From an uncultured Gammaproteobacteria bacterium (GTDB lineage Bacteria; Patescibacteriota; Microgenomatia; Daviesbacterales; UBA10151), in assembly GCA_964625535.1 (NCBI GenBank), contig CAZVEX010000005.1, positions 3,477 through 67,476 of the forward strand: a DNA stretch of 64,000 nucleotides. The letters are read 5' to 3'. Shown here one piece after another: positions 20,074 to 39,837 of this stretch. Numbering within the stretch: position 1 is the first letter of the stretch; the number at the start of each line of letters is the position of its first letter. Both the position numbers and the translations under genes were made by a program. The notes under the pieces are model-generated. The model saw nothing but the letters and a program-made list of their open reading frames with translations, made no database searches and was not told the origin of the DNA.

Positions 20074-21222
20074 TTATATACCAGCTCCGTTGGCGAAACA
20101 ATATTCTCTTGGCGCATCTTTTAAATTTTGGGCAAGTGCTTCAATTTGAGGCAGGCCTTTCAAAAATTCAATATTCCCCATACTATCTATATGAGATTTA
20201 AGATGAGCACAAAAATAACTCTGATATCTTACCCATACCTGCTGCTGGGTTAATCCGAACCTCTCGTGAAAAAGTCTTTCCAAATCAGCATATTTTTTAA
20301 CTTGATCCTGCTCTTGTTGATCCTTTATTCCACAACTTTGGGCAAAAGATAAAAGTACCTTCCTGTAAGCTTCAACCATGACTTTATACCACTCATCTAT
20401 AGAGGCTCCTGTCCTTGATCCATCAGCACTCAAATAACGCATGGTACTTTTTAAGTCCGGACGCCTTCTCCAAAAAAGATACATACAATCTTCTGAGGTT
20501 CGACCATTAGCTTCATAAAAAGGGTGGATTAAAATAAATGCCCATTGAAAAGCAGTAAGATAGTGGTAAACGCTGTCCCTTCGAACCTGCGGGTTGATCC
20601 CGTCTGGCGGAAAAAGCCCATCCATTTTATCCCCCAGCCTTCTTAATAAACCCGGGGTATTTTCATAACTTGCCCCTGGCAGCAAGTAATCGTAATTGTA
20701 GATTTCCGTCGGTAAAAAAAGGGGGGAACGAATAATTCCGGCAATGTCTTTTGATTTGGGATCTTCCACATAAACCTTGGCTTGTGAAGGATCAAGAACA
20801 TAATGCTCTCTGCCTTTAGTATGAGCTCTGTGTATTAAAAGAATTTGACTAACAGTATCTATACCAAACCTTTGGCAAAGGGGGAGAAGATTCCCTCTAA
20901 TACGATCTGTGGCTAAAACTCTCTGTCTTTTTGCTTCAAGAGCTAACCCCGGAGGGTGGGTAACTGTCCAAGACAGACGATCTATAAGCTTGTCACTTGT
21001 CCGCAAACCTTCAAGCATCAGCGGTACCCACAAACCTTCTTCGTCTTGACTATCACTAGCCCAAGCTAAACGATTGGAAAATACATCTAGTCCTTCCACC
21101 ACACAATCCTTCACATACTGCAGGCGGGCCTTGACACCTTGCATTATTGATCCTAGCCCGTTCCCAAAATCAATTTCATGCGACATGTCAGAGTGTTTTT
21201 CTTCGCCCTTCTGGGGGGACAT
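20074..21222 (-). CDS. Fic-domain protein with non-canonical active-site motif
   Basis: 382 aa. 'HPFYEANGRTSE' versus the canonical Fic motif HPFx[DE]GNGRxxR (Gly to Ala, final Arg to Glu). Located between rpmH and dnaA. Confidence 0.7.
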   Translation of the reverse strand: MSPQKGEEKHSDMSHEIDFGNGLGSIMQGVKARLQYVKDCVVEGLDVFSNRLAWASDSQDEEGLWVPLMLEGLRTSDKLIDRLSWTVTHPPGLALEAKRQRVLATDRIRGNLLPLCQRFGIDTVSQILLIHRAHTKGREHYVLDPSQAKVYVEDPKSKDIAGIIRSPLFLPTEIYNYDYLLPGASYENTPGLLRRLGDKMDGLFPPDGINPQVRRDSVYHYLTAFQWAFILIHPFYEANGRTSEDCMYLFWRRRPDLKSTMRYLSADGSRTGASIDEWYKVMVEAYRKVLLSFAQSCGIKDQQEQDQVKKYADLERLFHERFGLTQQQVWVRYQSYFCAHLKSHIDSMGNIEFLKGLPQIEALAQNLKDAPREYCFANGAGI

Positions 21223-21540: not shown

Positions 21541-21603
21541 TTATAGTTTCTCTATATTGCCAAGACAAAAAGCGTGGATTAGATTGTGGATAAGTTTTCC
21601 ACA
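21541..21603. promoter_or_regulatory. dnaA upstream region with DnaA boxes
   Basis: 'tgtggataa' (21585-21593) is a perfect reverse-complement TTATCCACA; 'ttttccaca' lies next to it; AT-rich. Confidence 0.6.
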
Positions 21604-22920
21604 ATGGATAATCTGAAAATCTGGCACAAATTCTTAGAAACTATTAAGCCGCAGGTAAGTCCTGTCAACTTTAAAGGATGGTTTTCCCAAATAAAACTGG
21701 ATTCCATTAAAGACGATAAGATCACTTTTTCCGCGCCTCACGCTTTTATTAAAGAAACTTTAACGCAAAGGCATCTACCTCTTATGGAAAAAGCCGTTGA
21801 AGACGTGATGGGTAAAAAAATGCAAGTTGAGATCACAGTCAAAAAACAAAGTAACACCCGACCTGATGAGGAAGAAGGGTTTTTCCAACCGATTCAACCA
21901 ACAACATCCGCTCTTAATCCCAAATATACCCTGGAAAATTTTGTGGTTGGTTTATCAAATAACCTGGCTTATGCCGCAGCCCAGGCTGTGGTACAAAACC
22001 CCGGAGTCTCTTATAATCCTTTATTTGTCTACGGCGGTACAGGAGTAGGGAAAACTCATTTAATGCTGGGTATTGGTAATGCCCTGTTAAAAACAGCGTC
22101 CCACTTAAAAATAATTTACTGCTCTTCGGAAAAATTCATGAACGATTACGTGGAGGCAATTCAAACTCACCGCATGGGGAATTTAAGAACAAAATACCGC
22201 TCGGCTCATGTTTTATTAATTGACGACATCCAGTTTTTCTCCGGCAGGGAAGGCACGCAGGAAGAATTTTTCCACACTTTTAACGAGCTGCAGGGGAAAA
22301 ACTCGCAGATAGTTTTAACGTCGGACCGCCCGCCCAATGAAATTGCCAAACTGGAGGATCGTTTAAAAAGCCGGTTTGCAGGAGGATTAATGGTGGATAT
22401 TCAATTTCCGGATTTTGATACCAGAGTGGCAATTTTACAAGCCAAGTGTGCGGAGCGCGGGGAGAGCCTGCCTGAAGAATCCTTAAAACTGATTGCCTCT
22501 TCCATGGAATCAAATATCAGAGAGCTGGAGGGAAAACTAATCCAGCTTCTGCAGGCTCTTAAAACCCATAATCTTCCTCCAACTGCGGAAAATATTGCTC
22601 CTTATCTTTCCCAACAGGTTAAAAATAATCTTAAAATTGACCACAAAAAAATACTGGACAGCATCTGCGCTTTTTTTAATTTAAGCCTGAAAGATCTGGC
22701 GGGCCCTAAAAGACAAAAAGAGCTGGTTTTACCAAGACATCTCGCCATGTATATCCTCTGCGAAGAATTAAACATGACAGTGGAAAAAATAGGGCAGATC
22801 CTGGGCGGGCGGGATCACACCACAGTAATGCACGGCCGAGACAGAATTAAGCAGCTGGTTAACTCCGATAGAGAAGTACAAAGACTGCTGATAGAAGTCC
22901 GGCAAAAAGCAATTAGTTAA
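21586..22920 (+). CDS. dnaA: Chromosomal replication initiator DnaA
   Basis: Walker A 'GGTGVGKTHL', AAA+ boxes, C-terminal DNA-binding domain. The track start is GTG at 21586; ATG at 21604 ('MDNLK') is more likely. Confidence 0.95.
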   Translation: MDKFSTMDNLKIWHKFLETIKPQVSPVNFKGWFSQIKLDSIKDDKITFSAPHAFIKETLTQRHLPLMEKAVEDVMGKKMQVEITVKKQSNTRPDEEEGFFQPIQPTTSALNPKYTLENFVVGLSNNLAYAAAQAVVQNPGVSYNPLFVYGGTGVGKTHLMLGIGNALLKTASHLKIIYCSSEKFMNDYVEAIQTHRMGNLRTKYRSAHVLLIDDIQFFSGREGTQEEFFHTFNELQGKNSQIVLTSDRPPNEIAKLEDRLKSRFAGGLMVDIQFPDFDTRVAILQAKCAERGESLPEESLKLIASSMESNIRELEGKLIQLLQALKTHNLPPTAENIAPYLSQQVKNNLKIDHKKILDSICAFFNLSLKDLAGPKRQKELVLPRHLAMYILCEELNMTVEKIGQILGGRDHTTVMHGRDRIKQLVNSDREVQRLLIEVRQKAIS

Positions 22921-23100
22921 GTTATCCACCAACGCTGGGTCTTTTCCACAAGTTATCCACAAATTATAAACAGCTAATTAACATAAAAAGTTTTAAGTTT
23001 TAAGTTTTAAGTTTTAAGTTATCCACATATCCACCATACATATAAATATGACTATTATTATTAAAAAGATAGTGTATAATTCTAAAACAAAAGTGGAAAA
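22921..23100. promoter_or_regulatory. Putative oriC: DnaA-box cluster plus AT-rich unwinding element
   Basis: Perfect TTATCCACA at 22953-22961 and 23019-23027, near-perfect boxes at 22922-22930, 22942-22950 and 23028-23036, (ttttaag)x4 at 22990-23018, then an AT-rich tract. Confidence 0.65.
22990..23018. repeat. Tandem heptamer (TTTTAAG)x4 within putative oriC
   Basis: Direct reading of the sequence. Confidence 0.9.
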
Positions 23101-23102
23101 GT

Positions 23103-23555
23103 ATGGACATTAACTGGATTTTAGTTTTAATTATCCTGGCAGGACTTGTCATAGTTTATTTAATGGGTAGGTTACACGGAAAACCCAAGGCAGACATACC
23201 TTCTGATTTAATTGATTTATATAAGGGCTTGCAGGATTTACCGGCCAAAGTTTTACAGGTTATTCAGGGGTCGATTAACCCCCAAAAAGGTAAAATGGCC
23301 GAGCTTTTGACTTACGCCGAACTGCGTTATGACTATGACCGGATCATCCCTTTGGGCTGGCCGATTGATTTTATCGGCATTAAAAATAACCAGCAGATAG
23401 ATTTTATAGAGGTTAAATCCGGAGCTTCCCTCTTGACAGAAGAGGAAAAACACATTAAAAACCTAATTGCGGCCGGAAGGGTCCATTTTAGGCTGATTAA
23501 AGTAACGGAAGAAGAGGTGCACAAGTTTGTAACTACCCGGAAAGGTATGGAATGA
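23103..23555 (+). CDS. Membrane-anchored hypothetical protein with PD-(D/E)xK-like nuclease signature
   Basis: 150 aa, N-terminal TM helix. 'IDFIGIK...IDFIEVKSG' resembles a D...E.K restriction-endonuclease-fold core. Sits between dnaA and dnaN. Confidence 0.35.
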   Translation: MDINWILVLIILAGLVIVYLMGRLHGKPKADIPSDLIDLYKGLQDLPAKVLQVIQGSINPQKGKMAELLTYAELRYDYDRIIPLGWPIDFIGIKNNQQIDFIEVKSGASLLTEEEKHIKNLIAAGRVHFRLIKVTEEEVHKFVTTRKGME

Positions 23556-23556
23556 A

Positions 23557-24657
23557 ATGAAATTCCAAATATTGCAACAAGATTTGCTGCCTGCGCTGCA
23601 GGCTGCTACCCGCAGCGTGGGGGTGAGGGCTACTTTGCCGGTTTTGGAAAATATCCTTTTGTCTGTTGAGGGTGGCAAATTAAAAATTGCCGCAACCAAT
23701 TTGGAAATCGGCATTATGAAATTTGTTCGTGTAAAAGAAGCAGCGGCAGGGGAAGTGACAATTCCTGCCAAGTTATTGCTTGAGGTTGTTTCCGGCTTGG
23801 GGCCAAGCGAGGTGGAGATGGAGTCAAGTAATGAAATTTTAGTAGTAGCAAGCGGCAAGTTCAAAGCCACCTTAAATGGGATCGCCGCCGGGGAGTTCCC
23901 GGCCATACCCTTAACAGACGGCAAAGGCATAACTTTTTCCAAAGAAGTATTGTTGGGCTGCGGACAAATCCTTTTTGCTGCGGCAGTGGACGAGGGCCGG
24001 CCGGTTTTAACAGGAGTTTTGACAGACGTCGGGGAGGAGAAAATAGATTTTGTGGCCACAGATGGTTTCCGGTTAGCTCACAGGCAGGTTGGTTTGCCTA
24101 AAGGAACCAAGCCGTTTAAGAGTCTGATCCCCAAAAGAACATTTGAAGAATTGCTGCGCGTTATTGGCGAGGATGAAGCAGAATCAGTCAACATTTCTCC
24201 CTCGCAGAACCAAAACCAGATAGTTTTTTCCGTTGGTAAAACAGTAGTTTCCTCGAGGTTGATAGAGGGTTCTTTCCCCGCCTGGGAGAAAATTATTCCC
24301 AGCCAAACCGTTGGCCGGGCGCTGGTGGACAAAGACGAGTTCTCAAGGGCGCTGAAGCTGGCGGCGGTGTTTGGCAAAAACGAGGCCAATATTGTGGTTT
24401 TAACCTCCCAGGAGAATAAACTAACTTTGGCCTCGTCGGTCAAGGAAGTGGGCAGTCAGGAAAACGAGGTGGAGGCTCAAGTTGAAGGAGATAGTTTGCA
24501 AGTTGCTTTTAACACCAGGTTTTTACAAGATGTTGTTTCCGCTTCTCCTTCCAGTCAGCTGATGATTGAATTTTCCGGGGCCCTGCAACCGGCTTTAATC
24601 AAACCAGTGGGAGAAGAAGGCTTGGAATACATTGTTATGCCTGTTCGTCTGTCTTAA
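23557..24657 (+). CDS. dnaN: DNA polymerase III beta sliding clamp
   Basis: 366 aa, 'MKFQILQQDLLPALQ...' typical DnaN. Follows dnaA. Confidence 0.9.
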   Translation: MKFQILQQDLLPALQAATRSVGVRATLPVLENILLSVEGGKLKIAATNLEIGIMKFVRVKEAAAGEVTIPAKLLLEVVSGLGPSEVEMESSNEILVVASGKFKATLNGIAAGEFPAIPLTDGKGITFSKEVLLGCGQILFAAAVDEGRPVLTGVLTDVGEEKIDFVATDGFRLAHRQVGLPKGTKPFKSLIPKRTFEELLRVIGEDEAESVNISPSQNQNQIVFSVGKTVVSSRLIEGSFPAWEKIIPSQTVGRALVDKDEFSRALKLAAVFGKNEANIVVLTSQENKLTLASSVKEVGSQENEVEAQVEGDSLQVAFNTRFLQDVVSASPSSQLMIEFSGALQPALIKPVGEEGLEYIVMPVRLS

Positions 24658-25088
24658 AATCCCCGGTATTTGATGGTGCGGAAATGAAAAACTTCTTCTC
24701 TAACAAGTCTTGCCCCGCCTTCAAACTTGCTGTCCGCCATGATAAACAGGGTATAGGTAGTGCCCAGTTCGTAGGGGCTAACAGGTATGATTTTGGCGGT
24801 TTTACGGTCACCCGAAAGCTCCACTCTATAATCTGTTTTTGGTTCTATTCTTATTTTAAATTCAGGTACATTTTCCAGCGGTCTGGAAAATGTCAGCTCA
24901 ATTGTCTCGGTTGAGGAAACAATGGTTTCGTCCAGAGGATCAGGTTTGGTGGAAACTATTCTGGGAATTTCCGGCAAGGAAGAAGGAGCTGGTTTTGTTC
25001 TGTTTGATCCTTGCCTTGATCCCAATAGGACCACAACAATTATAAGTATTATAATCGTTATAAATATTATATTTTTTTTCATTGGCAA
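24654..25088 (-). CDS. Hypothetical membrane-anchored protein (last gene of the T4SS-like operon)
   Basis: 144 aa, N-terminal TM helix, beta-rich C-terminal domain. 10-nt overlap with the upstream hydrolase gene. Confidence 0.4.
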   Translation of the reverse strand: MPMKKNIIFITIIILIIVVVLLGSRQGSNRTKPAPSSLPEIPRIVSTKPDPLDETIVSSTETIELTFSRPLENVPEFKIRIEPKTDYRVELSGDRKTAKIIPVSPYELGTTYTLFIMADSKFEGGARLVREEVFHFRTIKYRGF

Positions 25089-27169
25089 AGGTTAAAATAG
25101 GTATCTGCCGGTTTGAATTCTCCATTTTCTTGGATGGTAATATGGACATGAGCCCCATAAGGGTTACTCTGGTAATATTTGCCGATTAGCTTATTTGATT
25201 GAGCTTGTGAACCCAATATTAAATCTGGCGGGATAGATTCAAGGTGAACAAACCGGATGCGATAATGTTTTCCCTCGGCAATAGTGGTAGCCACAAAATC
25301 TTCTCCACCGCCTTCGGCGTCAGATATTGTCTTGGAAGCTTCAGTCACATTCCAGGTGACCTCTTTCCCGTTGATGACGGGAAGATAGACAGAAGGAAAT
25401 GTGCCGACAATATCCACAGCCTTATCTCTGCCTGTATAGCCGGCTTCCCCCACGGTGCAGCCCTGGCTGCCATATTGTTGCACATAAGAAGGACTGCAAT
25501 GTCCTCCGGTTTCTTTTGATCCGTTGGTTATTCTACCGGCTGCTACAGGGCAGCCAATGATGTTTGTACCGGGGGCGGATGAGGCCTGACAGTTTTGCAG
25601 ATCTTGCCAGGTCTCTTCACAATAACTAAAGTTTCCATAAGCACAACTGTTATAATACCTGTTAATAGCCGTGGTAACTTGATCCTTGGTAGGTTGGGTG
25701 GTGATACCATTAGATTTTAATTTTTCAGCAGCAATCGATAAGCTTTCCGTCAGACTGCATAAATTTTTTCCAGGATTATAGACATCAATTATTTGCATTA
25801 GACCAACAGCTTTGGCAGTTCTGGCACCCTGGGCTATTTCTTCGCCGGTGCATGCTCCATCATGAGAGAACTGGCCGGATTTTTCGCAGAAAGTAGAACC
25901 TTCCTGACAATAGTTATTAGATTTAATGGCATCATGGTTATCATCTGCATTAGCCACCAAATTAGCACTTTCATGCATGGCTACACTGGCCAAAATAGCA
26001 GCCGGCACACCTGATTGGGCAGCAGCATTATTGACCCAACTCATTAGGCTGGAGCTTTTAATCGGTAAAGAATTACCGGATCTGGTAAATTTACAGTTGC
26101 TAAGATCTGCGACGGGTGTGGTAGATCCTCCTCCGGGTGAAGGGGTGGTAGTTTGGCTAGGGGGGGAGGTGATTGCCAAAAAGGCCAAAATCAGTAATAC
26201 CAGCAGGCCAAAAATTAAAAACTTTTTGCCCGGGCCGGGTATGGAAAGGCGCGAAGCTGAATTGGACAATCTGGCCCCGGCATTAATGGCTCCACTGCCC
26301 ACCCCCCCAAAAAACCTAGTCGCTCCGCCGCTTCTGATCCATGAGGGCAGCAGCGCTCCCAAGCCCCCTCCCCCTAATGCTCCCAAGGGCCCAAAACTCG
26401 CTCCGGCAATGCCGCCAATTCCCCCTGATGCCAATGTCCCAATTCTCATGGCAGTTAAATTTCTCTTGATAAAAACACCGGTTCTGGAAGCCAGATTTTT
26501 GCCGAATGATTTGATACCGGTAGGGAAATTAAACCGGGAAGCTCGCGGTATGGCATGTTCTCTGACCCCGCCTTTTTCGGCCACCCATATTTTTGATGGA
26601 GGTTTTTCTACAATTTTTCCGCTGCCGGTTGCCCTGACTAGTTTTGACGCATCCCCGGCTTCTCTGATTGCTCCTGTACTGGTGGCAGTGACCAAGTCTG
26701 ATTTGGCGCGTTCTACAATATGAATAACACGGGGGCGGCGGTAAGAAGAAATGGAAGGACCTGATGGCAAACCTATTCCAGGAAACCCTCCTGCTGCCCC
26801 TGCAGGTTGTTCTGACGGGCCGGCGGGCGGCGGCACTTCCTCTGCACCTGCTGGTTGTTCACCAACTACCTCAACCGGCTTTTCCTCCAATACTTTTGTT
26901 ATTTCGGTTTGTTGTTGAAGAGTTAAGTTTCCCAGCAGGCGTTTTATTTTATTGGGGTCTGACAGATACTTGGTGATGAACTCATCATCTTTTCCCTGAA
27001 GATCAGGGAACTGACGAAGCAAATCAAGACAATGGGTTTTATCAATAGGTATTCGTTCGCCATTCATCACCACAAAGGAAGGAATTTGTTTTAGATTGAA
27101 GCGGTTCTCCTGCAACGCTTTAAAAAATGCTTTAAGCTGTATAAAATCAACAGGCTTTAAATAATCCAT
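25079..27169 (-). CDS. VirB1-like bifunctional peptidoglycan hydrolase (lytic transglycosylase SLT domain + M23/LytM peptidase domain) with Gly/Pro-rich N-terminal region and a TM helix
   Basis: 696 aa. SLT-like 'ILASVAMHESANL' (catalytic Glu-Ser). C-terminal 'YGAHVHI' HxH motif of the M23 family. TM 'FLIFGLLVLLILAFLAI'. Gly-rich low-complexity linker. Confidence 0.65.
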   Translation of the reverse strand: MDYLKPVDFIQLKAFFKALQENRFNLKQIPSFVVMNGERIPIDKTHCLDLLRQFPDLQGKDDEFITKYLSDPNKIKRLLGNLTLQQQTEITKVLEEKPVEVVGEQPAGAEEVPPPAGPSEQPAGAAGGFPGIGLPSGPSISSYRRPRVIHIVERAKSDLVTATSTGAIREAGDASKLVRATGSGKIVEKPPSKIWVAEKGGVREHAIPRASRFNFPTGIKSFGKNLASRTGVFIKRNLTAMRIGTLASGGIGGIAGASFGPLGALGGGGLGALLPSWIRSGGATRFFGGVGSGAINAGARLSNSASRLSIPGPGKKFLIFGLLVLLILAFLAITSPPSQTTTPSPGGGSTTPVADLSNCKFTRSGNSLPIKSSSLMSWVNNAAAQSGVPAAILASVAMHESANLVANADDNHDAIKSNNYCQEGSTFCEKSGQFSHDGACTGEEIAQGARTAKAVGLMQIIDVYNPGKNLCSLTESLSIAAEKLKSNGITTQPTKDQVTTAINRYYNSCAYGNFSYCEETWQDLQNCQASSAPGTNIIGCPVAAGRITNGSKETGGHCSPSYVQQYGSQGCTVGEAGYTGRDKAVDIVGTFPSVYLPVINGKEVTWNVTEASKTISDAEGGGEDFVATTIAEGKHYRIRFVHLESIPPDLILGSQAQSNKLIGKYYQSNPYGAHVHITIQENGEFKPADTYFNLCQ

Positions 27170-27184
27170 AAGATAAAAGTATCA

Positions 27185-28963
27185 CTAAACGTTCCCTCTT
27201 GCCAGTATTTCTTGCGGATTAGAGGTAATGAGCTGATGTTCCTCCGGGGAGGCCACCACCCGCATGGCTACATGGGTGTTGCCAGCAAAAAACAAGCCTT
27301 GACCGATCCCTTCAGACAGCAACAATCTTTGTTCCCCCTCGGACAAATTAAAAACTTGGGCCAGAAGGTCAATGGAAACAGGAGCCTGTTTTAAAAGTAC
27401 CTGAATTGACGAGTTGGAAATTATTTCCTTACCCCGATCTCCACCCAGAAAATCTTCCACATCTTGAGTTATGGTGGTTAAACCCAGATAATATTTTCTG
27501 GCCCGCTTGGCCATGTCCACCAGAAAATTGGCAGAGTCTTCATTTCTCATTAAATACCAGGCTTCATCCACGATCATGATTCTTTTCTTGAGCTTGCTCC
27601 TTACCTTAGTCCAGACATAATCCAGGATCATATGCATGGCTAAAGGCCGCAGCTGATCGGCCAGGTCCCTGACGGAAAAGACCGTGAAGGAGTTAGCAAT
27701 GTCAATGTTGGATTGGGCGGAAAAAATGCCGGCTAAAGAGCCTTTAATAAACCTTTCCAGACGGACCGACAGTTCCATGGCCGCAGGTTCTTCCATGCCA
27801 ACCAGCACTTTATACAAATCTTCCATTAAGGGAGGCCCGCCTGTGCCGGGTTGGGTTTTGGGATCATCGGTAATGCCTTTTAAGGCGTAAGTTTGTTTCA
27901 AAGCCCGATCCAGCAGGGCAGCCTCTCCCGCGGAAAGTTGCCCCAAAACCAGTTTTAAAAAGGCAGTCAAAGATAAAATTTTCCTGCCCAGCTGGTTTTC
28001 GCCGGTAGTGTCTTGGGACAAGTCAAAGGGGTTGATTTTAACCGGAGAAGAAGAGGAAAAATTAATGAATTCTCCTCCCACCGCTTCGCAGAGAGGTAAA
28101 TATTCCTGTTCCGGGTCAATCACAATGATTTCCGTGCCAAACATCAAAGATCGCAAAGCTTCTAATTTTACAAAATAACTTTTTCCCGCGCCGGCTTTGG
28201 CAAAAACCACCGAATTGGCATTTTCCAGGGAGAAACGGTCAAACAGAATTAAAGAGTCATTGTGCTCATTGATGCCGTACATCACTCCCTCATTGGCAGT
28301 TAGTTCGGAGGAAGCAAAGGGAAAAGTGGTGGCCAGGGAAGTGGTGTCCATATTGTGAGTAAAATTTAAAAGGTCTGCGCCCTGGGGCAAGGTTGATTTA
28401 AAGCCGTCTTCCATTTGCAAAGTGGTGGGTTGGGTGGTAATGGAGAGCGAAGCCAGAGTGGATTCTATTAGTCTGGAGGTGTTATGCAGTTCGTCAAGAG
28501 AGGAGGCAGGTATTGTCACATACAAGGCAAAATCAAAAAACCTCTCCGCGCCCCTGACCAGCTGATCCTGCAGAGAGCGGGCATCTTCCAAAGCCACCTC
28601 CACTGCCGGGTCAATGGCTTTACCTCGCTCAAGATCGGTTTGAATGGTGGCTTCCATTTCGGCAATTTTTCTTTTCAACTCATCCAGCACTCCGGATGAA
28701 GGCGAGGGATAGATGAACATGGAAATAAGCAGGGAATGGTCAAAAGAAATTAGCGGTTCCAGCCAATTGGATTCCACAAACCTGGGATAATTTGAGACAA
28801 AATATGTGCGAAAATAGCGGTTATTGATTCTTAAATTATTAAAGTCAACCTCTATTTCAGCCGGAGACACCACATCCTCCAGAGTTAACTGGGGAGGAAT
28901 TTTTTCTTCCTGAACTTTTGTATTTTTCAATAAGCTGGGTAACTTCATAATTTTAAATTTCAA
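27185..28963 (-). CDS. virB4: VirB4/TraC-family type IV secretion ATPase, central and C-terminal part
   Basis: 592 aa. Walker A 'AKAGAGKS', Walker B 'IMIVDEAW' (VirB4-type DEAW), middle-region 'RYFRTYFVSNYPRFV' motif. Track start is TTG; ATG at 28948 is plausible. Confidence 0.8.
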   Translation of the reverse strand: MKFKIMKLPSLLKNTKVQEEKIPPQLTLEDVVSPAEIEVDFNNLRINNRYFRTYFVSNYPRFVESNWLEPLISFDHSLLISMFIYPSPSSGVLDELKRKIAEMEATIQTDLERGKAIDPAVEVALEDARSLQDQLVRGAERFFDFALYVTIPASSLDELHNTSRLIESTLASLSITTQPTTLQMEDGFKSTLPQGADLLNFTHNMDTTSLATTFPFASSELTANEGVMYGINEHNDSLILFDRFSLENANSVVFAKAGAGKSYFVKLEALRSLMFGTEIIVIDPEQEYLPLCEAVGGEFINFSSSSPVKINPFDLSQDTTGENQLGRKILSLTAFLKLVLGQLSAGEAALLDRALKQTYALKGITDDPKTQPGTGGPPLMEDLYKVLVGMEEPAAMELSVRLERFIKGSLAGIFSAQSNIDIANSFTVFSVRDLADQLRPLAMHMILDYVWTKVRSKLKKRIMIVDEAWYLMRNEDSANFLVDMAKRARKYYLGLTTITQDVEDFLGGDRGKEIISNSSIQVLLKQAPVSIDLLAQVFNLSEGEQRLLLSEGIGQGLFFAGNTHVAMRVVASPEEHQLITSNPQEILARGNV

Positions 28964-29688
28964 ATTGCATCCTCCAGTTCCTCCACCACAAAAGGGTGGG
29001 TTTTGACAATCTGGCTACTTAACGGAGGAGGATTATTAATGGCAGGTTTTTCTTGGACAGCAGGCGGCGGGGTAGGAGTGGACACAATCGGTTTAGGAGC
29101 ATTGAGTTTGACCGGTTGCGGCAGCGGAGTAAATTCTTCTCCACTACCGTTGTAAGCATTGTAAAAAAGCTCCAGTAGTTCCTTGCTTTGAAGCTGGGTG
29201 GCTTTTAGGCCAACACGGTTTAACTGTCTGATAACCTGATCGCGCCTTGGCAGAAGCACTGTTTTGACTTTTTGGTATAAGGCTTCTCTGGTAGGGATAA
29301 TCCCCAGCTCCAGCTTGGACAGAGGAATGACCACGTAGAATTTCTTATCCAACACCTCGTTTTCCTTAATGGTGGTTTGGATAAACTGGCGGTACGATGT
29401 CATCATAGCCGAAAGCAGTGGGTTGGTCTGGGCTTTTTGGGCATGATCCAGCAGGTTCAGATATGAGCTGATATTTAGTCTTTCCGACTGGATCACAATC
29501 TGAATGGCAAAGGACAGCGAATTTAACATTTGGGCAAAGCTGGCAATAATCCCTATTTGTTCTCTTTCCGATAACAGGCCAAAATTAACTGCGGAAACCT
29601 GCATTACCAGGGCGCCGCCGCCGTCTTTTAAAAGCAGTATATTGTCTTTAATATCGCTAATTAACAAATGTTCCTGGGTTGTGCTCAT
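28960..29688 (-). CDS. VirB4 N-terminal domain encoded as a separate ORF (split VirB4)
   Basis: 242 aa. 'LLLKDGGGALVMQVSAVNFGLLSEREQIGIIASFAQMLNSL..IQIVIQS' matches the VirB4 N-terminal consensus. 242 + 592 aa equals a full-length VirB4. The stop and downstream start are in different frames. Confidence 0.55.
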   Translation of the reverse strand: MSTTQEHLLISDIKDNILLLKDGGGALVMQVSAVNFGLLSEREQIGIIASFAQMLNSLSFAIQIVIQSERLNISSYLNLLDHAQKAQTNPLLSAMMTSYRQFIQTTIKENEVLDKKFYVVIPLSKLELGIIPTREALYQKVKTVLLPRRDQVIRQLNRVGLKATQLQSKELLELFYNAYNGSGEEFTPLPQPVKLNAPKPIVSTPTPPPAVQEKPAINNPPPLSSQIVKTHPFVVEELEDAI

Positions 29689-30695
29689 GATGAACTCCCT
29701 GCCGCCTTAGCTGTTATTATCAAAGGCGGTAAAACCTGACCGCCCAATTCTACCTGCAAGACATCAAAATTATATCCTTCCTTTTCCAGCTCCAGGGTAT
29801 AAGTGCCGTTGGGCAGTGGAGTTGAACCGCTAAACTGGCCCAGCTTATTGGTTTTTAGCGCGCGGACCGGTAAGCCTTCTTTATCATAAATAACCGTTAC
29901 CACCGCTTCCAGGTAATTCCCGGCAAGATCTTTAATAATGCCGTTTATTACATTGGGAAAGGTGGTCAGGGCAACTTGAGCCTGTTTGGGTTTGACAGGA
30001 ATGACTACTTTGACTTTTTCTATTGGGAGAGGGGGCAGAGGAGGGGGAGGCTTAACTTCATCAAGCCGGCTTCTTATTTGTGAAGCCTGAGACACCAGTT
30101 TTTGCAGTTCGGACATGATCTCACTGACCTGCTGGCTGTAATCAATGGGTACAGGAGAGGGTTTGGTGGCTTCATTCCGGATTTGGTGCAAAGCTCGCTC
30201 CGCCTGGATAATTCTCACCTGCAGCCCTTGGGCCTGTCTGGCCAGATCGACTGTTTTGCCAAGATCCTCGGTTGTGGGAAGAGATGGTAGAGATGGCGGG
30301 GGCGGAGCGGGGGGAGCAGATTCTTTGACCGGCTGGGGTCCCAGACTGGCAACATACATCACATAACGGCTTTTAAAAAGCGGATTTTCCCGAAAACCCT
30401 GACCCATTTTTTTCCAGGACCTTTTTGTGGGAGAATAAATCGTTTTTAAAAAAGTGGCCACCCAGTAATCCAGGGGGCGGGAGGCAAAAGGCAAAAAGGC
30501 AAAGGCCAAACCCAACAGGCTGGAGATGATAATCAGCGGCCAGGCTACTAAGGGGTAATCCTTGGCCACAGTCACAAATATAAGATAGGCAAACCCCGCG
30601 CCCCCGGCCAAATACAAAAACTGTTTTAGGGTCATATCCCCTACCAGGTGGAATTGAAAAGAGGTGACATTTTGCGGAATAGGATGCGGCTCCAT
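29685..30695 (-). CDS. VirB3-like two-TM protein with Pro-rich linker, coiled coil and C-terminal Ig-like/CarboxypepD_reg-like beta-sandwich domain
   Basis: 336 aa. Two N-terminal TM helices directly upstream of VirB4 (conserved VirB3 position), 'APPAPPPPSLPSLP' linker, C-terminal 'NGTYTLELEKEGY'-type beta-sandwich. Confidence 0.4.
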   Translation of the reverse strand: MEPHPIPQNVTSFQFHLVGDMTLKQFLYLAGGAGFAYLIFVTVAKDYPLVAWPLIIISSLLGLAFAFLPFASRPLDYWVATFLKTIYSPTKRSWKKMGQGFRENPLFKSRYVMYVASLGPQPVKESAPPAPPPPSLPSLPTTEDLGKTVDLARQAQGLQVRIIQAERALHQIRNEATKPSPVPIDYSQQVSEIMSELQKLVSQASQIRSRLDEVKPPPPLPPLPIEKVKVVIPVKPKQAQVALTTFPNVINGIIKDLAGNYLEAVVTVIYDKEGLPVRALKTNKLGQFSGSTPLPNGTYTLELEKEGYNFDVLQVELGGQVLPPLIITAKAAGSSS

Positions 30696-30993: not shown

Positions 30994-32391
30994 ATGCTAG
31001 TAGAAGCGCCTCAATTTTCAACCACCCCAAAAGATTTAGCCGGTGGTCATTATGACCCTAACTTTCATTGGGAAGATACAATAGTCATTGCCAGACCAAT
31101 TGAGCGAATTTTACCCCCTCCAGAGGTTCAGGAACCGCAGTATCAACCAGTAGAGCTAGCAACCGGCTTGGTTATCAATCACCAGTTAAGAAAAGCCAAG
31201 TGGGATTCAGCCAAGGAAATAAAACGTTTTATATACGATATCAACGCAGGTTTAGAAAACGGGAATAATTTATCTGAAGCAGTCAACGCATCAGCAGGCG
31301 AGATTGTCAACAACATTGTGGCTTATTATAATGAGATTACCAGACAAAAACCCTTTTTAGTGCATACCAACAGATTTGATGAGTATAAAGGGCAAAGAAG
31401 GCTGGTGGGTAATAATGGTAGACCGGTGGTTGATGCCATCACAGCCGAGGAAAGAAAAGGCGCTGTTTTACAAGCCTCCCAAAAAATCGAAGCTGATTTA
31501 CTTGATGCTCCTAATAACTCCTTTATGGTCTTGATGAGTCCCGCCGGTTTAAATGGTTTTGTAGGTGAACATGGTCAAAGGTTGTCTCACTTAAATACCG
31601 AAGTAATGATTTTTTGGAAAAATCAAAACGGTTTGTTAAAAGGAGGTACGCTGGTTTTGGATTTAATGTACCAGCAAGCAGAAATGGTGATGGCGGATTT
31701 GGGAGTGACAAAAAAGCTCAGCGATGCAGATGAACTGGAAAGACTTGCCAATATTGTCAGAAACCCGATCTTATTTGCCTTTCCCCGCTCGGATATGACT
31801 CCTTTTGAGTATGTTTTAGATAAAATACTTGCGAGAAGAGGTAGCAGCGATTTCAGATTGCGTCAGCAAGACGGTAGCATAGAAACACGATCCATAGCAG
31901 AGGTCAGAGCCGATATCAGAGGATTTGATAAGATTTTGGAATTAACCGACGAGGAAGAAAAATGTCTTGCTGGATTCAGGCAGTTTATTTTGGATAATCA
32001 GGAAAGAGTTAACGAAAAAGGTGTTCAGCAGGCAATTATTAACAGGATGGGAAAAGCAGTCCTGATTATGGCAAGAATATATCTAGAAAGTAAAAATCCT
32101 GACCGAATGATCGCTTTTCATTCCCCCCAGCCTTCCGCATCTTATCACGAGGATAATTTTGATAGAGAAATTGCTTATCTTTTGACCAGAGCAGGTTGTC
32201 CGCCAGGGGGATCTTCAGGGTTGAGGGTTTTGAGTGGAATAAGTTTAGGTTCAGGTTTTTCCGGTTTCGGAGGAGGGGGAAAGAGTGAATGGTTTTGTAT
32301 TCGCTGTGGAGCTTGCGGAGCCTTGATTAATTGTGTGGTCAGGCCGGGAGAAAAATGCCCGGTTTGTCCGGCTGTTAGGCAATGCTCGTAA
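30994..32391 (+). CDS. Hypothetical protein with C-terminal Gly-rich segment and Cys-rich zinc-ribbon
   Basis: 465 aa. C-terminus 'CIRCGACGALINCVVRPGEKCPVCPAVRQC'. No recognisable catalytic domain. Immediately upstream of the 1400-aa gene. Confidence 0.4.
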   Translation: MLVEAPQFSTTPKDLAGGHYDPNFHWEDTIVIARPIERILPPPEVQEPQYQPVELATGLVINHQLRKAKWDSAKEIKRFIYDINAGLENGNNLSEAVNASAGEIVNNIVAYYNEITRQKPFLVHTNRFDEYKGQRRLVGNNGRPVVDAITAEERKGAVLQASQKIEADLLDAPNNSFMVLMSPAGLNGFVGEHGQRLSHLNTEVMIFWKNQNGLLKGGTLVLDLMYQQAEMVMADLGVTKKLSDADELERLANIVRNPILFAFPRSDMTPFEYVLDKILARRGSSDFRLRQQDGSIETRSIAEVRADIRGFDKILELTDEEEKCLAGFRQFILDNQERVNEKGVQQAIINRMGKAVLIMARIYLESKNPDRMIAFHSPQPSASYHEDNFDREIAYLLTRAGCPPGGSSGLRVLSGISLGSGFSGFGGGGKSEWFCIRCGACGALINCVVRPGEKCPVCPAVRQCS

Positions 32392-32460: not shown

Positions 32461-35400
32461 TTGTCGCAGAAATTGACAATTAGTTCACAAAAACCATACA
32501 CTAAAATGAGTAAAGAAATAATTATGGCAGAAACAGCAGAAGCGCCGGTTCAAGCTCCCGAAGGGGAGACATTCTCACCCGCAGATGCGCCGGATACGGC
32601 TGCCGGAGTTGAAAGATTTTTAAACCGAACCCCCCGTGATTTATCTGCCCTCGGGGATGTCCCTCCCGAAGATGCAGAAACTCAACCATCTGCGGATGGG
32701 GGTGGAACAGCAGCGGTAGGAGAAGGAGGAAGAGGTAGGGGTTCTGACGGCCCCGGCGGTAGAGGCCCGGAAGAACCACTTGAACCCCCAGAAGGATTCA
32801 GAAGATTTGATTGGGAGGGGCATTTAGAAGTACTGTGGAGTCCGGAGTTTAGAGCTGAAATGTGGGATACTGTAGAACAACTTAGCATAATTGAGGCTTG
32901 GCCGACGGAGCTAAAATATGATGGTGGTGAAACTGAGCGATATTCCAACGACCTTTTTAAATATTGGAAATATCTGGAATCTTTGGATAACAAAAGATCA
33001 TATGAAAGCAAACCATTTACCCCGGCAGATTTTGAGCCGATAAAGATTACTCCTGAAGTGCTGGAACAACCAGAAGACAAACTAACCGATTTACAACCAT
33101 TTAAAGTTGTGTTTGAACGTTATCAGAGTTCGCGTAATTCTGAAGGTGAAGTAAGCAGATATTTTAATGAGATGAGGAGAATGGGGCTTGTAAACGGCGT
33201 AGATGATTCTTTGAAAAGCATTTATGCCCAAATAATGCAGGGTATGGAAATGGTGACGGAGGAAGATGGTAGAGGAGCAAGGAGAAGAATGGATAAGGAT
33301 GAGATTATGGACAGGGTAGAAAAAGCCCGGGCAGCCATGGTTAGATCAGCAGAAAGAGCTCTGAAAACATTGAAGCGATCTGATTCAACGAAAGTAGATT
33401 TAGTAAAAATAGGCAAATTAGAAGGGGGATTGGAAGCCTATATTGAGCTGGGAGTTGGCAGATTTGACCTGTTGTTGACAGGTGGAGGATTGATGCAACC
33501 TCCGGGTATCGAAGGTGAATTCGACTTCAATATAGGGGATGTTGGGTCGGAAAGTGCTGTAGCCTTTAGAAGGTTGGCTGCTGAAGGAGAAATCTTCTGG
33601 CGTCCGACCTGGGCCAATTATTTTGAAGTATCTGCCAGAACTCCGCAGCAATTCCAGAGAGCAATAGAAACTTTTATCCGGTGGATGAGAACAGGTCTTG
33701 GAAAAGATCCTGAGGATCTTTTCCAAAAAGTAAACGGATTTAAAGAGGCTTTAACTGCTGCCGGTCAAAGAGCAGGCCCTGAAGCACAAGAATATACAGT
33801 AGGGTTAAGGTTGCTGCTGGAGATTTTAATGGGGGTAATAGGCGCTGATTTTTCCAATGAACAATATAAGGCTGCCAACTTCAAGGCTTTTTGGCAGTTT
33901 GCAGCAAAAAACGAAGGTCCTGACAGAATGCTTCAGCTGGCCAAAGCATTCAGAGGCATATTACCTGTAGTTTTACATAAATTTGATAAAGATATCACTA
34001 ATGAACTATTGTTTTCTCCTCATGGCTCAAGAGGGCAGTTAATGGGTAGAGAACGCAATGCTATCGAAATGGATGATCTGCAAAAGCAAAAATTGGCAAT
34101 ATTAACAGCACAGATAATGGGTATTGCTATGAAAGGTTATCATCCTGATGATGCTGAACAAATTCTGGATAGTAATATGTATAAGAGAAATTTGGCTGAA
34201 ATAACCAAGTTTAAATCAGATGAGTATTTTGAAAACTTGTATGAGGGGTTTGATCCGGCCGAGCAGGAAGCACTTCTTAGACAATTGGAAGCACACCCCC
34301 TCATACGAAATATTAAGTTTGCAAAGCTGGTTAATGAACAGGCTTTTATCGGGCCACTAACACCAGAACAAACACAATTTTATAAGGATTGGAAATCAGG
34401 CGATCTGATTAAATCTATCCAGGAAAAAGAACAAAACATCAAGTTCGCCAGATGGGTCCAAGCACAGATTGATAAAGGTGAGCAGCCTGAATTAAGCGGA
34501 AAAAGGCTACAAATTTATAATGACTGGAAAGAGAATGCATTGCCCCGTCCCCCAATTGCCTTATCACAGCTGCAAGCCTGGGAAAGACTGGATAGAGCCA
34601 GCAGGATTCAACAGTATCTGGCAGCAGGCAATGACCCCGATAAATTAACCGGAGAAGACAAAATCATGTATGAGGAGGCCAAAAATGTTGTTACTTTGGC
34701 TTATGAGCTGTATGGAGCAATGGGTGAAAAAGCCAAAAGGGGTGGAGGTGTTTTCCTGGTAGAGAGAAGCAAACCAGATGGTACTGTCATGAGAGATTTG
34801 CAGGGCCAGCCAGTGGTTGATTATATCCCGGTTCATTGGGCGGAAAAATTTGTCCATTTTGCCGAAAATTGGACCAAAGCTACTTATGGCGACCTGCCTG
34901 CAGCCGAATTGAAATATAGGGTAGACCAAGCTAGGAGAATGGCTACCTGGGCTTTAAAAACCTATGGATATGATGCAAAGCTATGGGATTTTACCCTACT
35001 CAGGAATGGTAAGCCTGTAGATCCTAATACTTTGGGTTATAGCAAATATGGTCAAGATCTTAGTAAAAGTGAAAGCGACCCAGTAGAAAGGATAGAAAGG
35101 TTTAGATATGCGCCTCCTGAAAACCCAAGAATTTTGGGTTATAACTCTAAAGGCGAGGAAGTAATCTTAGTTTTTGATGATGATGGTAGGCCTGTTGGTT
35201 TGGAGTTTGATCGAGATAACAAAGCTGTTATTTATGATAAGTTTTTTGTCAAAATAGATGAAAGAGGGAGACCTGTAGATCAAGAGGGCAATCCCGTCGC
35301 GCCTACCCAAACTAATCGTATTATTTTTGATAATTTTGATAAAGCAGAGCCAATGCTACTTAAAATACCCAGAGGGACTATAGATCCTAAGACCGGCAAA

Positions 35401-36663
35401 ATGATAGTACAGGGTGAGCCGGAGAAGGTGCATATAGGTTTTGATGCGATCACTCACCGCTTTCCCTCTCATCCTTATTCCCGCTGGACAGGTCATCCTT
35501 ATTGGGGTTATCAGGAAGAAGATACAGGATTGGTTTTAAGCCCCGAATCTTTTGATGCTGCCAGAAGAATCAAAAACGGCCAGTTGCGACCGGAAGATGC
35601 ACCGCCTCATGCAGTCCAGCTTTTAATAGTTGATCCAACTCTGGAACGCGTTGGCCATTTTGATTTAGAAAGCTTAGAAGCTGTGGTTGGCCTGGCTGCT
35701 GTAGAGGAGTCATATCAAGCTCACTGGAGAATTGGGGACGAGCTGTATATGAATTTTTTCCCTGAAGACGCTTCCCGTGTTAAAAACCGCACTGCTTATA
35801 TCTTGCAGGATCATGGCGGTTCTACTAAGCAGTGGTTTCACATTAGAGCCGAAGCTGCCCTGTGGCCTGATTCTAGAGTGAGAAGACTTAGGATTTTTAC
35901 TCCCTTTATACCTTTACCCTTTGCTTCCATGTCTGAAATGTGGGGGGCACCGGGAGGAGCGCTGGATGTTTTCAGAATGATGGGATATGAAAAGTACAAG
36001 ATGGTTGGACAGTTTGCCATGGATAAGTGGGTTAATCAAATAGATGGAGCCCAGGATGTGTACGAGAGTATAGCTGACTGGTATAGCCCACAGGAGAAGA
36101 GACTTAAAGAAGGGTTGGGTAGAAAACTTAACAATGAAGCTGATGTAAACCTAAAGAAGCATTATCAGCAGGTTGTGATAACTGGAGAACTTCAACCTGG
36201 ACCATCAACCCGTGAAGATATATATGAGCAGTATCTTGTTAGTTCCAGAGATTCATTAAATAGAGAGGAAGTTCTCCAGCAAAGAAACACGGTTCTAGGA
36301 TCTTTTATGAGGGGAGAACGTGCTCCTTTATGGCTGGAAGGTATAGATACTTTTCTAAAGGAGGACTTGGTGGACAAGAAGACCGGTAAAATTACCAAGA
36401 AGGGTGATTTTAATCCTAAAATTGATGAGATGAGAGATTCAGGTTCATCAAGACACACAAACAGGATATTTCACTATAGGTATGCCAGATTTATAAGGTC
36501 TCCAGCGGGACAAGCTTTATACCCTGATACGGCCAGGTATTATGCATTATTGGATAATCCTCTAGCTGATTATCCAAGGTTGGTTGAGGAATTTGCGGGA
36601 ACAGGGAAGAGCCCGGCACAAGTAACTGGATGGGATTGGTTAGACAGTAAAATGAATAATTAG
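32461..36663 (+). CDS. Giant hypothetical protein (1400 aa), Gly/Arg-rich disordered N-terminus, Trp/Tyr-rich, no TM helix or signal peptide
   Basis: Uninterrupted 4.2-kb ORF embedded antisense in the T4SS-like locus. N-terminal 'GGGTAAVGEGGRGRGSDGPGGRGPEEP'. No known catalytic motif recognised. Confidence 0.5.
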   Translation: MSQKLTISSQKPYTKMSKEIIMAETAEAPVQAPEGETFSPADAPDTAAGVERFLNRTPRDLSALGDVPPEDAETQPSADGGGTAAVGEGGRGRGSDGPGGRGPEEPLEPPEGFRRFDWEGHLEVLWSPEFRAEMWDTVEQLSIIEAWPTELKYDGGETERYSNDLFKYWKYLESLDNKRSYESKPFTPADFEPIKITPEVLEQPEDKLTDLQPFKVVFERYQSSRNSEGEVSRYFNEMRRMGLVNGVDDSLKSIYAQIMQGMEMVTEEDGRGARRRMDKDEIMDRVEKARAAMVRSAERALKTLKRSDSTKVDLVKIGKLEGGLEAYIELGVGRFDLLLTGGGLMQPPGIEGEFDFNIGDVGSESAVAFRRLAAEGEIFWRPTWANYFEVSARTPQQFQRAIETFIRWMRTGLGKDPEDLFQKVNGFKEALTAAGQRAGPEAQEYTVGLRLLLEILMGVIGADFSNEQYKAANFKAFWQFAAKNEGPDRMLQLAKAFRGILPVVLHKFDKDITNELLFSPHGSRGQLMGRERNAIEMDDLQKQKLAILTAQIMGIAMKGYHPDDAEQILDSNMYKRNLAEITKFKSDEYFENLYEGFDPAEQEALLRQLEAHPLIRNIKFAKLVNEQAFIGPLTPEQTQFYKDWKSGDLIKSIQEKEQNIKFARWVQAQIDKGEQPELSGKRLQIYNDWKENALPRPPIALSQLQAWERLDRASRIQQYLAAGNDPDKLTGEDKIMYEEAKNVVTLAYELYGAMGEKAKRGGGVFLVERSKPDGTVMRDLQGQPVVDYIPVHWAEKFVHFAENWTKATYGDLPAAELKYRVDQARRMATWALKTYGYDAKLWDFTLLRNGKPVDPNTLGYSKYGQDLSKSESDPVERIERFRYAPPENPRILGYNSKGEEVILVFDDDGRPVGLEFDRDNKAVIYDKFFVKIDERGRPVDQEGNPVAPTQTNRIIFDNFDKAEPMLLKIPRGTIDPKTGKMIVQGEPEKVHIGFDAITHRFPSHPYSRWTGHPYWGYQEEDTGLVLSPESFDAARRIKNGQLRPEDAPPHAVQLLIVDPTLERVGHFDLESLEAVVGLAAVEESYQAHWRIGDELYMNFFPEDASRVKNRTAYILQDHGGSTKQWFHIRAEAALWPDSRVRRLRIFTPFIPLPFASMSEMWGAPGGALDVFRMMGYEKYKMVGQFAMDKWVNQIDGAQDVYESIADWYSPQEKRLKEGLGRKLNNEADVNLKKHYQQVVITGELQPGPSTREDIYEQYLVSSRDSLNREEVLQQRNTVLGSFMRGERAPLWLEGIDTFLKEDLVDKKTGKITKKGDFNPKIDEMRDSGSSRHTNRIFHYRYARFIRSPAGQALYPDTARYYALLDNPLADYPRLVEEFAGTGKSPAQVTGWDWLDSKMNN

Positions 36664-38934: not shown

Positions 38935-39261
38935 TTATGAGGGGCTGGGGTTGGGGGTGGGGATAACAATGTTGGTTATGTTCAATCCTGTGAATTGTCC
39001 GGCCACTCTGGCCAGGGCAAAAGCCACAGCCAAAACAGCCAAGCCAATCAAGGCATTGATAATTCTATTTCTGGCCTTGCTGACGGCCTCTTTGTCTCCG
39101 CCGGAAGTAATCCATTCAAACGCTCCCCAGATTAGCATTACCAGAACTACCAGCAGTCCCAGACTAAAAGCCAGCAATAGAAAATTGCTGATAAACTCGC
39201 CCAAACTGGCATAACCTTTACCTTGGGGAGGGGTAATAGTAATGGTAGGAGCCGGACTCAT
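38935..39261 (-). CDS. TrbC/VirB2-family pilin-like protein (paralog 2)
   Basis: 108 aa, 'LIWGAFEWITSGGDKEAVSKARNRIINALIGLAVL'. Compare RP4 TrbC '[28 protein letters not shown]'. Confidence 0.6.
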   Translation of the reverse strand: MSPAPTITITPPQGKGYASLGEFISNFLLLAFSLGLLVVLVMLIWGAFEWITSGGDKEAVSKARNRIINALIGLAVLAVAFALARVAGQFTGLNITNIVIPTPNPSPS

Positions 39262-39300
39262 AATCTAATCTTATTCACAAAACTATTTACTTGTCAAGCA

Positions 39301-39837
39301 TCACTTTTGACCTTCAAAAAACTTAAAGCCGGTAAATTGTCCCAAAACCTGGATAACTGCAAAGGTAATAGCCAAAAGCAAAATTCCCACCACAGCATTA
39401 ATGATTTTTTTTCTGGCCGAATCCAGTTTTTCCTTGTCCCCCTCCGAGGTCATCCAGTCCCATCCTCCCCAAAGCAGCATGAAAATTAACACTACCCCGG
39501 CAGCTGCATAAATTAAACCTACCAGATTGGACAAAAACCTGCTGATCCCCCCGGCTCCTGTGGGATCAGGGGAGGTAAAGGGTAACAGTTCCGGAGGAGG
39601 ATTGATAGTGCCGAAGGACTTACCAACTTCTGATTTTTCACAAGTACCTCGACTAGGATCAGCCGTGAGGGGTTTACAAACCAACCCTGCTTCACAATGC
39701 CCATTGGGATCTTTTATAAAACAGAAACCCGGTTCTTTTATATGATGAGCCAATACTACGTTAGCGTTGATCCCGAAAAACAGACAAATAAAGATCAAAA
39801 GAAAAAGTTTTTTAATCATACAAGAATATATTATCAT
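39301..39837 (-). CDS. Pilin-like protein with N-terminal signal peptide and Cys-rich extracellular extension fused to TrbC/VirB2 core (paralog 3)
   Basis: 178 aa, signal peptide, six Cys in 'CFIKDPNGHCEAGLVCKPLTADPSRGTCEK', then 'LWGGWDWMTSEGDKEKLDSARKKIINAVVGILLL' pilin core. Confidence 0.6.
   Translation of the reverse strand: MIIYSCMIKKLFLLIFICLFFGINANVVLAHHIKEPGFCFIKDPNGHCEAGLVCKPLTADPSRGTCEKSEVGKSFGTINPPPELLPFTSPDPTGAGGISRFLSNLVGLIYAAAGVVLIFMLLWGGWDWMTSEGDKEKLDSARKKIINAVVGILLLAITFAVIQVLGQFTGFKFFEGQK

Follow-up and report, generated by a model that had tools for sequence, protein, structure and literature searches.

How is the VirB4 ATPase encoded where its sequence is found in two open reading frames (ORFs)? 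The question is raised by the 64,000 nucleotides analysed here (positions 3,477 to 67,476 of contig CAZVEX010000005.1, assembly GCA_964625535.1; hereafter the window), whose minus strand carries between 29688 and 27185 a short ORF (ORF1) followed by an ATPase ORF (ORF2) in another frame. An earlier note on this DNA had left the choice between a genuine split and a frameshift, the latter by assembly error or pseudogenisation. The split proves genuine: it is conserved and under selection, and its two products are jointly colinear with single-chain VirB4. We conclude that the locus is very probably a genuine and ancient two-gene VirB4, in a densely packed operon that belongs to a type IV secretion system (T4SS) located near the chromosomal origin of Patescibacteria, the Candidate Phyla Radiation (CPR). 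A two-gene layout is already published for the Patescibacteria T4SS and present in protein-family databases, and is in this sense ordinary; the earlier note, right to admit a genuine split, had not recognised the arrangement as the known pair formed by TrsD and VirB4.

In the ORF list, ORF1 (29688..28960, minus strand) starts with ATG and encodes a TrsD-like protein of 242 aa. ORF2 (28963..27185, minus strand) counts 592 aa from a TTG codon, and 587 aa from its first ATG at 28948 (27185..28948), the start favoured by the GenBank gene call and by a conserved N-terminus. The junction reads GTG GTG GAG GAA CTG GAG GAT GCA ATT TGA aatttaaaatt ATG AAG TTA CCC: the TGA stop codon of ORF1 (28962-28960) and an A/T-rich spacer of 11 nt together occupy 28949..28962, so that the first ATG of ORF2 comes 11 nt past the stop, in a different frame. 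The TTG (28963-28961), which is in the frame of ORF2, overlaps the stop as TTGA, and a TAG closes this frame 17 codons further upstream. Both the ORF list and the reading of the junction match what the earlier note had described, i.e. two ORFs in separate frames, a stop at 28960-28962 and an ATG at 28948.

Could a single-chain VirB4 have been cut here by a sequencing or assembly frameshift, or by a recent pseudogenisation? The local sequence would allow it: above the TTG the frame of ORF2 stays open for 17 codons, within which (28963-29014) the gain or loss of 1 nt would join the two ORFs; besides, fused VirB4 is known in Clostridium and in one CPR-like representative, P0293. The comparison of the junction among relatives, which the earlier note had proposed as a check, nevertheless argues strongly against it. 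The best 120 homologues of ORF1 (63-100% identity, 234-265 aa) and the best 120 of ORF2 (80-93% identity, 564-608 aa) are all stand-alone proteins, 240 without exception, and such an identity of ORF2 between species is unlike that of a decaying gene. With one genome scanned for each GTDB species, 80 related loci were obtained, from Daviesbacteria, Microgenomates, Gottesman-, Ames- and Woesebacteria, 71 of which carry both genes: in 71/71 a stop codon ends ORF1 and the ATPase gene then follows. The stop is TGA in 35 loci, TAA in 29 and TAG in 7, and all three relative frames of ORF1 and the ATPase gene occur (42, 20 and 9 loci), the commonest being -1 (42/71) and the in-frame relation being found in 9/71. 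The junctions range from overlaps of 23 nt to spacers of about 180 nt: ATGA overlaps in 27 loci, other overlaps in 13, gaps of 0-15 nt in 15, of 16-60 nt in 2 and of more than 60 nt in 14. One of these long spacers, the 101 nt of the related locus L001, is borne out by independent gene calls. A single recent indel is excluded because frames, stops and spacers are so diverse in the 71 loci, and an error shared systematically is implausible, given the differing junctions and sequencing projects.

The ends of the two proteins tell the same story, the C-terminus of ORF1 and the N-terminus of ORF2 being each conserved as a protein end. The last codons of ORF1, H-P-F-V-V-E-E-L-E-D-A-I (28963..28998, minus strand), encode a tail that shows no variation at H, P, F, E, E and L in our alignment A1, HPFVVEEL as a whole being invariant or nearly so. 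Over 57 loci the codons used for this tail vary synonymously (CAT/CAC, CCG/CCT/CCA/CCC, GTG/GTA/ATA). As the residues stay constant while the codons change, the frame of ORF1 is, judged from these alignments, under protein-level selection to its last residues. The splitting of the 71 loci, the stand-alone lengths of the homologues and this selection refute the frameshift, assembly error or pseudogene that the earlier note had considered, and we give such an accident a near-negligible probability.

The earlier note had associated a genuine split with translational coupling. The split is indeed conserved and coupling is typical, ATGA overlaps being the largest class of junctions, but coupling is not required, since more than 60 nt separate the genes in 14/71 relatives: tight coupling is, from the junctions compared, evidently modal in the family yet dispensable. 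The frequent -1 relation between the genes might also evoke a programmed -1 frameshifting or, alternatively, a stop read-through, producing some fused VirB4 besides the two separate products. In the window the H-P-F codons (28990-28999, minus strand) read C CCT TTT, formally a heptamer of the X XXY YYZ type, and from this point the -1 frame runs into ORF2 without a stop. Yet only 4/57 loci possess the heptamer, and it is combined with an open -1 frame in 1/57, which is the window itself; as it is unique among these loci, the combination is probably coincidental. Moreover 29/71 loci have another relative frame, and in most of the spacers above 60 nt the ATPase frame is closed by stop codons. 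No stimulatory structure was noticed, though no search was aimed at one. The -1 relation is a by-product of the ATGA overlap, and read-through cannot be a general mechanism, the two genes being in frame in only 9/71 loci. We have thus rejected -1 frameshifting as a conserved mechanism, and a fused product made by either route seems to us extremely improbable.

The two genes being separate, what do they encode? ORF2 matches the NCBIfam model NF045971 (CD1110 VirB4) with 387.4 bits (E-value 1.3e-115), above the cutoff of 325. The match spans positions 183-733 of the 752 of the model, whose N-terminal ~180 positions are absent from ORF2; this N-terminal domain sits in the separate gene ORF1, a stop codon and a change of frame lying in between. 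ORF2 contains NRYFRTYFVSNYPRF, a Walker A motif AKAGAGKSY (GAGKS) and a Walker B motif IMIVDEAW (IVDEAW), matches the Pfam families P-loop_TraG, AAA_10 and DUF87, and aligns over its aa 225-581 with the VirB4 C-terminal domain of PDB entry 4AG5 (E-value 2.7e-47). ORF1 for its part carries LKDGGGALVMQVSAVNFGLLSEREQ, so that all the motifs quoted by the earlier note have been found again. Its aa 26-182 align with positions 24-170 of the CD1110 VirB4 model (E-value 2.8e-5); it also matches positions 131-281 of VirB4_plasma, the mycoplasma VirB4 model, and positions 14-200 of the 201 of the TrsD/TraD model NF041427 (32 bits, E-value 1e-7). In total three NCBIfam models place ORF1 on the N-terminal region of VirB4 or on TrsD, with E-values of 1e-9 to 3e-5. 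In the precomputed Pfam annotations the ORF1 homologues are TraC-like or TraC_F_IV, the TraC-like family PF26593 being assigned to P0001, a protein identical to ORF1, and to 119/120 of the homologues listed.

Further evidence comes from a VirB4-like protein in one piece. On the Clostridium sporogenes plasmid NZ_CP022406 a fused protein of 866 aa follows the PrgI gene: aa 10-180 of ORF1 match its residues 68-227 (BLASTP, 22% identity, E-value 8e-12), and aa 19-581 of ORF2 its residues 272-865 (E-value 2e-47), the two matched parts being exactly complementary. The statement of the earlier note that the two ORFs together equal one normal VirB4 thus holds on the CD1110 model as well as on the 866-aa protein, with a homology well above what chance would produce. 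The clostridial VirB4, an example of the single-chain CD1110-family and TraC-family ATPases of Bacillota, shares with the window the order of the domains (N-domain, middle region, Walker A/B ATPase) and the PrgI gene upstream; it differs by being one polypeptide with an N-terminal transmembrane helix, whereas the window encodes two polypeptides that have none. This last difference is more general: the Bacillota homologues begin with a transmembrane helix, and no transmembrane segment was found in ORF1 or in ORF2.

In the Bacillota the split form also exists. A Pontibacillus megaplasmid carries a homologue of ORF1 of 274 aa (31% identity, E-value 3e-31), whose gene overlaps that of a 621-aa CD1110 VirB4, itself followed by an M23 DD-metalloendopeptidase gene: both the split and the synteny are as in the window. 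From the Pontibacillus and Clostridium loci it therefore appears that fused and split forms coexist in Bacillota, while the CPR systems are split. A profile search among 1.8 billion cluster representatives (50% identity) returned 2,310 matches, of which the best 150 were inspected: just one, the CPR-like P0293 (787 aa), is fused to the ATPase.

The exact start of ORF2 deserves a comment, as the earlier note had suggested looking for a TTG or ATG start preceded by a Shine-Dalgarno sequence near 28948. Such a TTG exists at 28963, with GGAGGA 6 nt upstream; this hexamer, however, is merely part of the E-L-E-D codons of ORF1, and we consider the TTG less likely than the ATG at 28948. In relatives the ATPase has a conserved beginning, M-K-L/I-P-x-L-F-K-K (MKLP or MKIP in 64/120 homologues), and in several of them a stop codon stands directly before the ATG of M-K-L/I-P. 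The GenBank record calls ORF1 and ORF2 as two genes, with 587 aa for ORF2, and in relatives with long A/T-rich spacers the ATPase start has no Shine-Dalgarno-like sequence. Because of this conserved MKLP N-terminus, of the 587-aa call and of the starts devoid of Shine-Dalgarno sequence, ATG 28948 is probably the true start.

As a separate observation, 13 relatives have between the trsD-like gene and virB4 an A/T-rich spacer of 80-180 nt containing short direct repeats, e.g. aatttacaatttacaatttacaatttt and aattaacctaattaacctaatttctaat. These sites are found for example in L033 (~1728-1854), L039 and L041 (~4233-4414), L003, L038 and L001 (6751-6851). Small insertions or internal promoters are possible explanations of these repeat-bearing spacers.

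Some points weigh against our reading of the pair as a whole. The 32 bits of ORF1 on NF041427 are far below the curated cutoff of 200, so that ORF1 is, by this profile, a distant homologue standing outside this narrow TrsD/TraD subfamily. The local Pfam scan of ORF1 was empty, even at an E-value of 10, though the local copy may lack the PF26593 model. AlphaFold2 gave for ORF1, from an alignment of 31 sequences, a poor model (mean predicted local distance difference test score, pLDDT, of 55), and the Foldseek matches of this model to R388 TrwK/VirB4 chains are not significant (E-value of at least 0.03, TM-score 0.3-0.4). Coupling is dispensable, as said above, and five loci (L006, L019, L029, L046 and L069) keep the ORF1 tail while lacking the N-terminal peptide of the ATPase. 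Finally, the association of the TrsD-like protein with VirB4 is a predicted one.

Part of these points would suit another explanation, i.e. that ORF1 is an unrelated accessory protein next to a naturally short VirB4, its likeness to the N-domain being spurious. Nothing meaningful came out of the PDB when it was searched with a profile of the aligned ORF1 sequences, which, like the empty local Pfam scan and the low-confidence model, goes in this direction. But a spurious likeness would hardly fall on the same region in three NCBIfam models, nor match by BLASTP precisely the part of the fused VirB4 that ORF2 leaves uncovered; the precomputed Pfam assignments agree with these results, and so do the profile comparisons published with respect to the VirB4 N-terminus (PMC12102498). 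The structural route lends weak support: the R388 TrwK/VirB4 chains occupy ranks 1, 2, 6, 7 and 10 of the Foldseek matches of the predicted model. We hold an unrelated ORF1 to be very unlikely, and retain the view that ORF1 is the N-domain of VirB4 encoded apart.

Beyond its domain, ORF1 displays a particular build. The VirB4 N-terminal domain covers aa ~10-180 and is followed by a proline-rich linker (aa ~183-228), then by the conserved C-terminal peptide HPFVVEELEDAI; linker and tail together (aa ~183-242) correspond to 28963-29145 on the minus strand. The TrsD-like proteins are generally so built: a domain of ~190 aa, a low-complexity linker rich in Pro, Gln and Thr, of about 20 to 500 aa, and a short C-terminal peptide. 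The tail PF[VI]VEEL is present in 120/120 close homologues and in 32/150 of the best representatives; under the form PF[VI]VEEL(x)DDYG it characterises Daviesbacteria-like lineages, the close homologues of this group reading HPFVVEELE(D). Another large CPR group ends with LPP[LI][PA]EI (35/150 representatives): its proteins are of 276-715 aa (median 526), the longest of them having Q/P/T-rich linkers that extend to roughly 500 aa. The fused P0293 has neither linker nor tail motif, and lacks also the N-terminal peptide of the ATPase.

What could this tail bind? The proline-rich linker and the PFVVEEL peptide would probably form a flexible tether binding some partner, which is speculative. We propose, tentatively and as a possibility rather than a probability, that linker and tail are an undescribed docking device tethering the split-off domain to the ATPase or to another T4SS component. 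If true, the tether would be the feature that made the splitting of VirB4 viable; the fused P0293 has neither linker nor motif. A pairing of the acidic tail (VVEELED) with the basic N-terminal peptide of ORF2 (MKLPxLFKK) was considered but is not supported, on account of the five loci that keep the tail without the peptide. The conserved C-terminal peptide on a disordered TrsD linker is possibly the only new detail of this locus: in the searched passages of PMC12102498 we found neither this linker and tail feature nor the spectrum of junction types.

As to the function of the pair, ORF1 would provide the N-domain of VirB4 as a soluble protein of its own, and ORF2 the middle region with the RecA-type ATPase domain. 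The free TrsD-like subunit would most likely act as a non-covalent adaptor, docking the ATPase hexamer onto the PrgI/VirB3-like protein. This adaptor role is deduced from the R388 structure, where the N-terminal domains of VirB4 hold the protomers together within each dimer, insert into the membrane and touch VirB3 and VirB8 (PMC12857230). R388 TrwK/VirB4 (PDB 7O41, 7O42, 8RTD) thus serves as the reference for the role of the N-domain, and is the top-ranked Foldseek match of the ORF1 model; on the other hand R388 belongs to the diderm MPF_T systems and has its VirB4 in a single chain, and its structural match to ORF1 is not significant (E-value 0.03). The short spacing of the genes would help to make similar amounts of both products.

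The pair has close counterparts. In the Patescibacteria T4SS described by Quinonero-Coronel et al. 2025 (Microb Genom, PMC12102498) a TrsD-like gene lies directly upstream of virB4, as in the window; PrgI/VirB3-like and VirB1-like proteins, VirB2-like pilins and the adjacency to dnaA and dnaN are shared too, and on these points nothing material differs. According to this paper TrsD is a remote homologue of the N-terminal portion of VirB4 and is more abundant in Patescibacteria than any other T4SS component: 2,272 homologues were counted over 2,221 assemblies, and 1,664 of these homologues adjoin virB4. In both Microgenomatia and Paceibacteria the T4SS loci are close to dnaA and dnaN, and Microgenomatia often have VirB2 arrays; outside Patescibacteria TrsD is confined to the pGO1-type subclass of MPF_FATA. 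The paper also lists a TrsD homologue as essential in Ca. Southlakia epibionticum, in which the T4SS is reported to be needed for epibiotic growth; the Patescibacteria T4SS is among the few systems reported essential for the epibiotic lifestyle. The main text of Guglielmini et al. 2014 (PMC4027160) makes no mention of TrsD.

The staphylococcal plasmids pGO1 and pSK41 (MPF_FATA) offer the other comparison, TrsD/TraD being there upstream of a shortened VirB4, TrsE/TraE, like the pair of the window. The contexts differ: these plasmid systems ensure plasmid transfer, whereas that of the window is chromosomal and origin-proximal and would, from the literature on epibiotic growth cited above, be needed for this way of life. 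Unlike TrsD/TraD of pGO1/pSK41, the CPR protein has no N-terminal transmembrane helix, and possesses the proline-rich linker and the tail motif. Annotators of CPR genomes should take a split VirB4 neither for a pseudogene nor for an assembly error, and the small upstream "hypothetical protein" deserves a name: VirB4 N-domain (TrsD-like) subunit.

The operon to which the pair belongs reads, on the minus strand, PrgI/VirB3-like protein, TrsD-like ORF1, VirB4 ORF2, VirB1-like hydrolase and a small Big_5 protein. The first gene (29685..30695, minus strand) encodes a membrane protein of the PrgI family (VirB3-like; 336 aa), assigned by Pfam PrgI with 29.3 bits for a cutoff of 27, which has transmembrane segments at aa 26-44 and 47-65 and whose stop overlaps the start of ORF1 by 4 nt. 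This protein is unusually long: after the transmembrane segments come a proline-rich region and a weak CarboxypepD_reg-like domain (E-value 2.7e-4, under the Pfam cutoff). Downstream of ORF2 lies the gene of a 696-aa protein (25079..27169, minus strand), putatively a VirB1-like cell-wall hydrolase by its motifs and synteny. The Pfam scan of the window gave no match for it; by eye we recognised an SLT-like "GLMQI" and an M23-like "HVHI" motif, and the syntenic protein of L001 (741 aa) matches Peptidase_M23, the same slot being occupied in Pontibacillus by the DD-metalloendopeptidase. These motifs and the synteny make a bifunctional VirB1-like cell-wall hydrolase its probable identity.

Other T4SS genes lie about 9 kb away, on the side of the operon opposite to dnaN/dnaA: two VirB2-like pilins of 108 and 178 aa (38935..39837, minus strand; Pfam PF18895, E-values 1.1e-10 and 1.5e-7), and a third pilin candidate at 38572-38898 (minus strand) with a weaker PF18895 match. 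The gene of a 614-aa protein (36678-38522, minus strand) lies between the pilin genes and the other genes of the cluster; the protein has a signal-like N-terminus, about 8 hydrophobic segments and no Pfam match; this polytopic membrane protein may be a highly divergent VirB6 candidate. VirB6 homologues are reported as scarce in Microgenomatia. Divergently oriented from the PrgI/TrsD/VirB4 operon, two plus-strand genes encode proteins with neither Pfam match nor transmembrane segment, of 465 aa (30994-32391) and 1400 aa (32461-36663; 1385 aa in GenBank); a 462-aa homologue occupies the same position in L001.

On the other side of the operon Pfam identifies on the plus strand dnaA (21586-22920) and dnaN (23557-24657), with a Holliday-junction-resolvase-like nuclease gene between them (within 21586..24657, plus strand), and past dnaA come rpmH, rnpA, yidD and yidC. 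The gene order and the dnaA/dnaN neighbourhood are matched in L001. Beside dnaA a 382-aa Fic/DOC protein (20074-21222, minus strand) is detected with 24.3 bits, just above the cutoff of 24.

The protein P0001, identical to ORF1, and an identical contig (JACPUM010000003.1) belong to GCA_016192235.1, a Candidatus Daviesbacteria bacterium: the host of the window is a member of the Patescibacteria (CPR), Candidatus Daviesbacteria, class Microgenomatia, which is among the classes covered by PMC12102498. Many of the records of metagenome-assembled genomes behind the related loci (L007, L010, L012 and others; binchicken co-assemblies) are titled "uncultured Gammaproteobacteria bacterium" despite a clearly Patescibacteria locus; such titles are evidently a placeholder or a wrong taxonomy.

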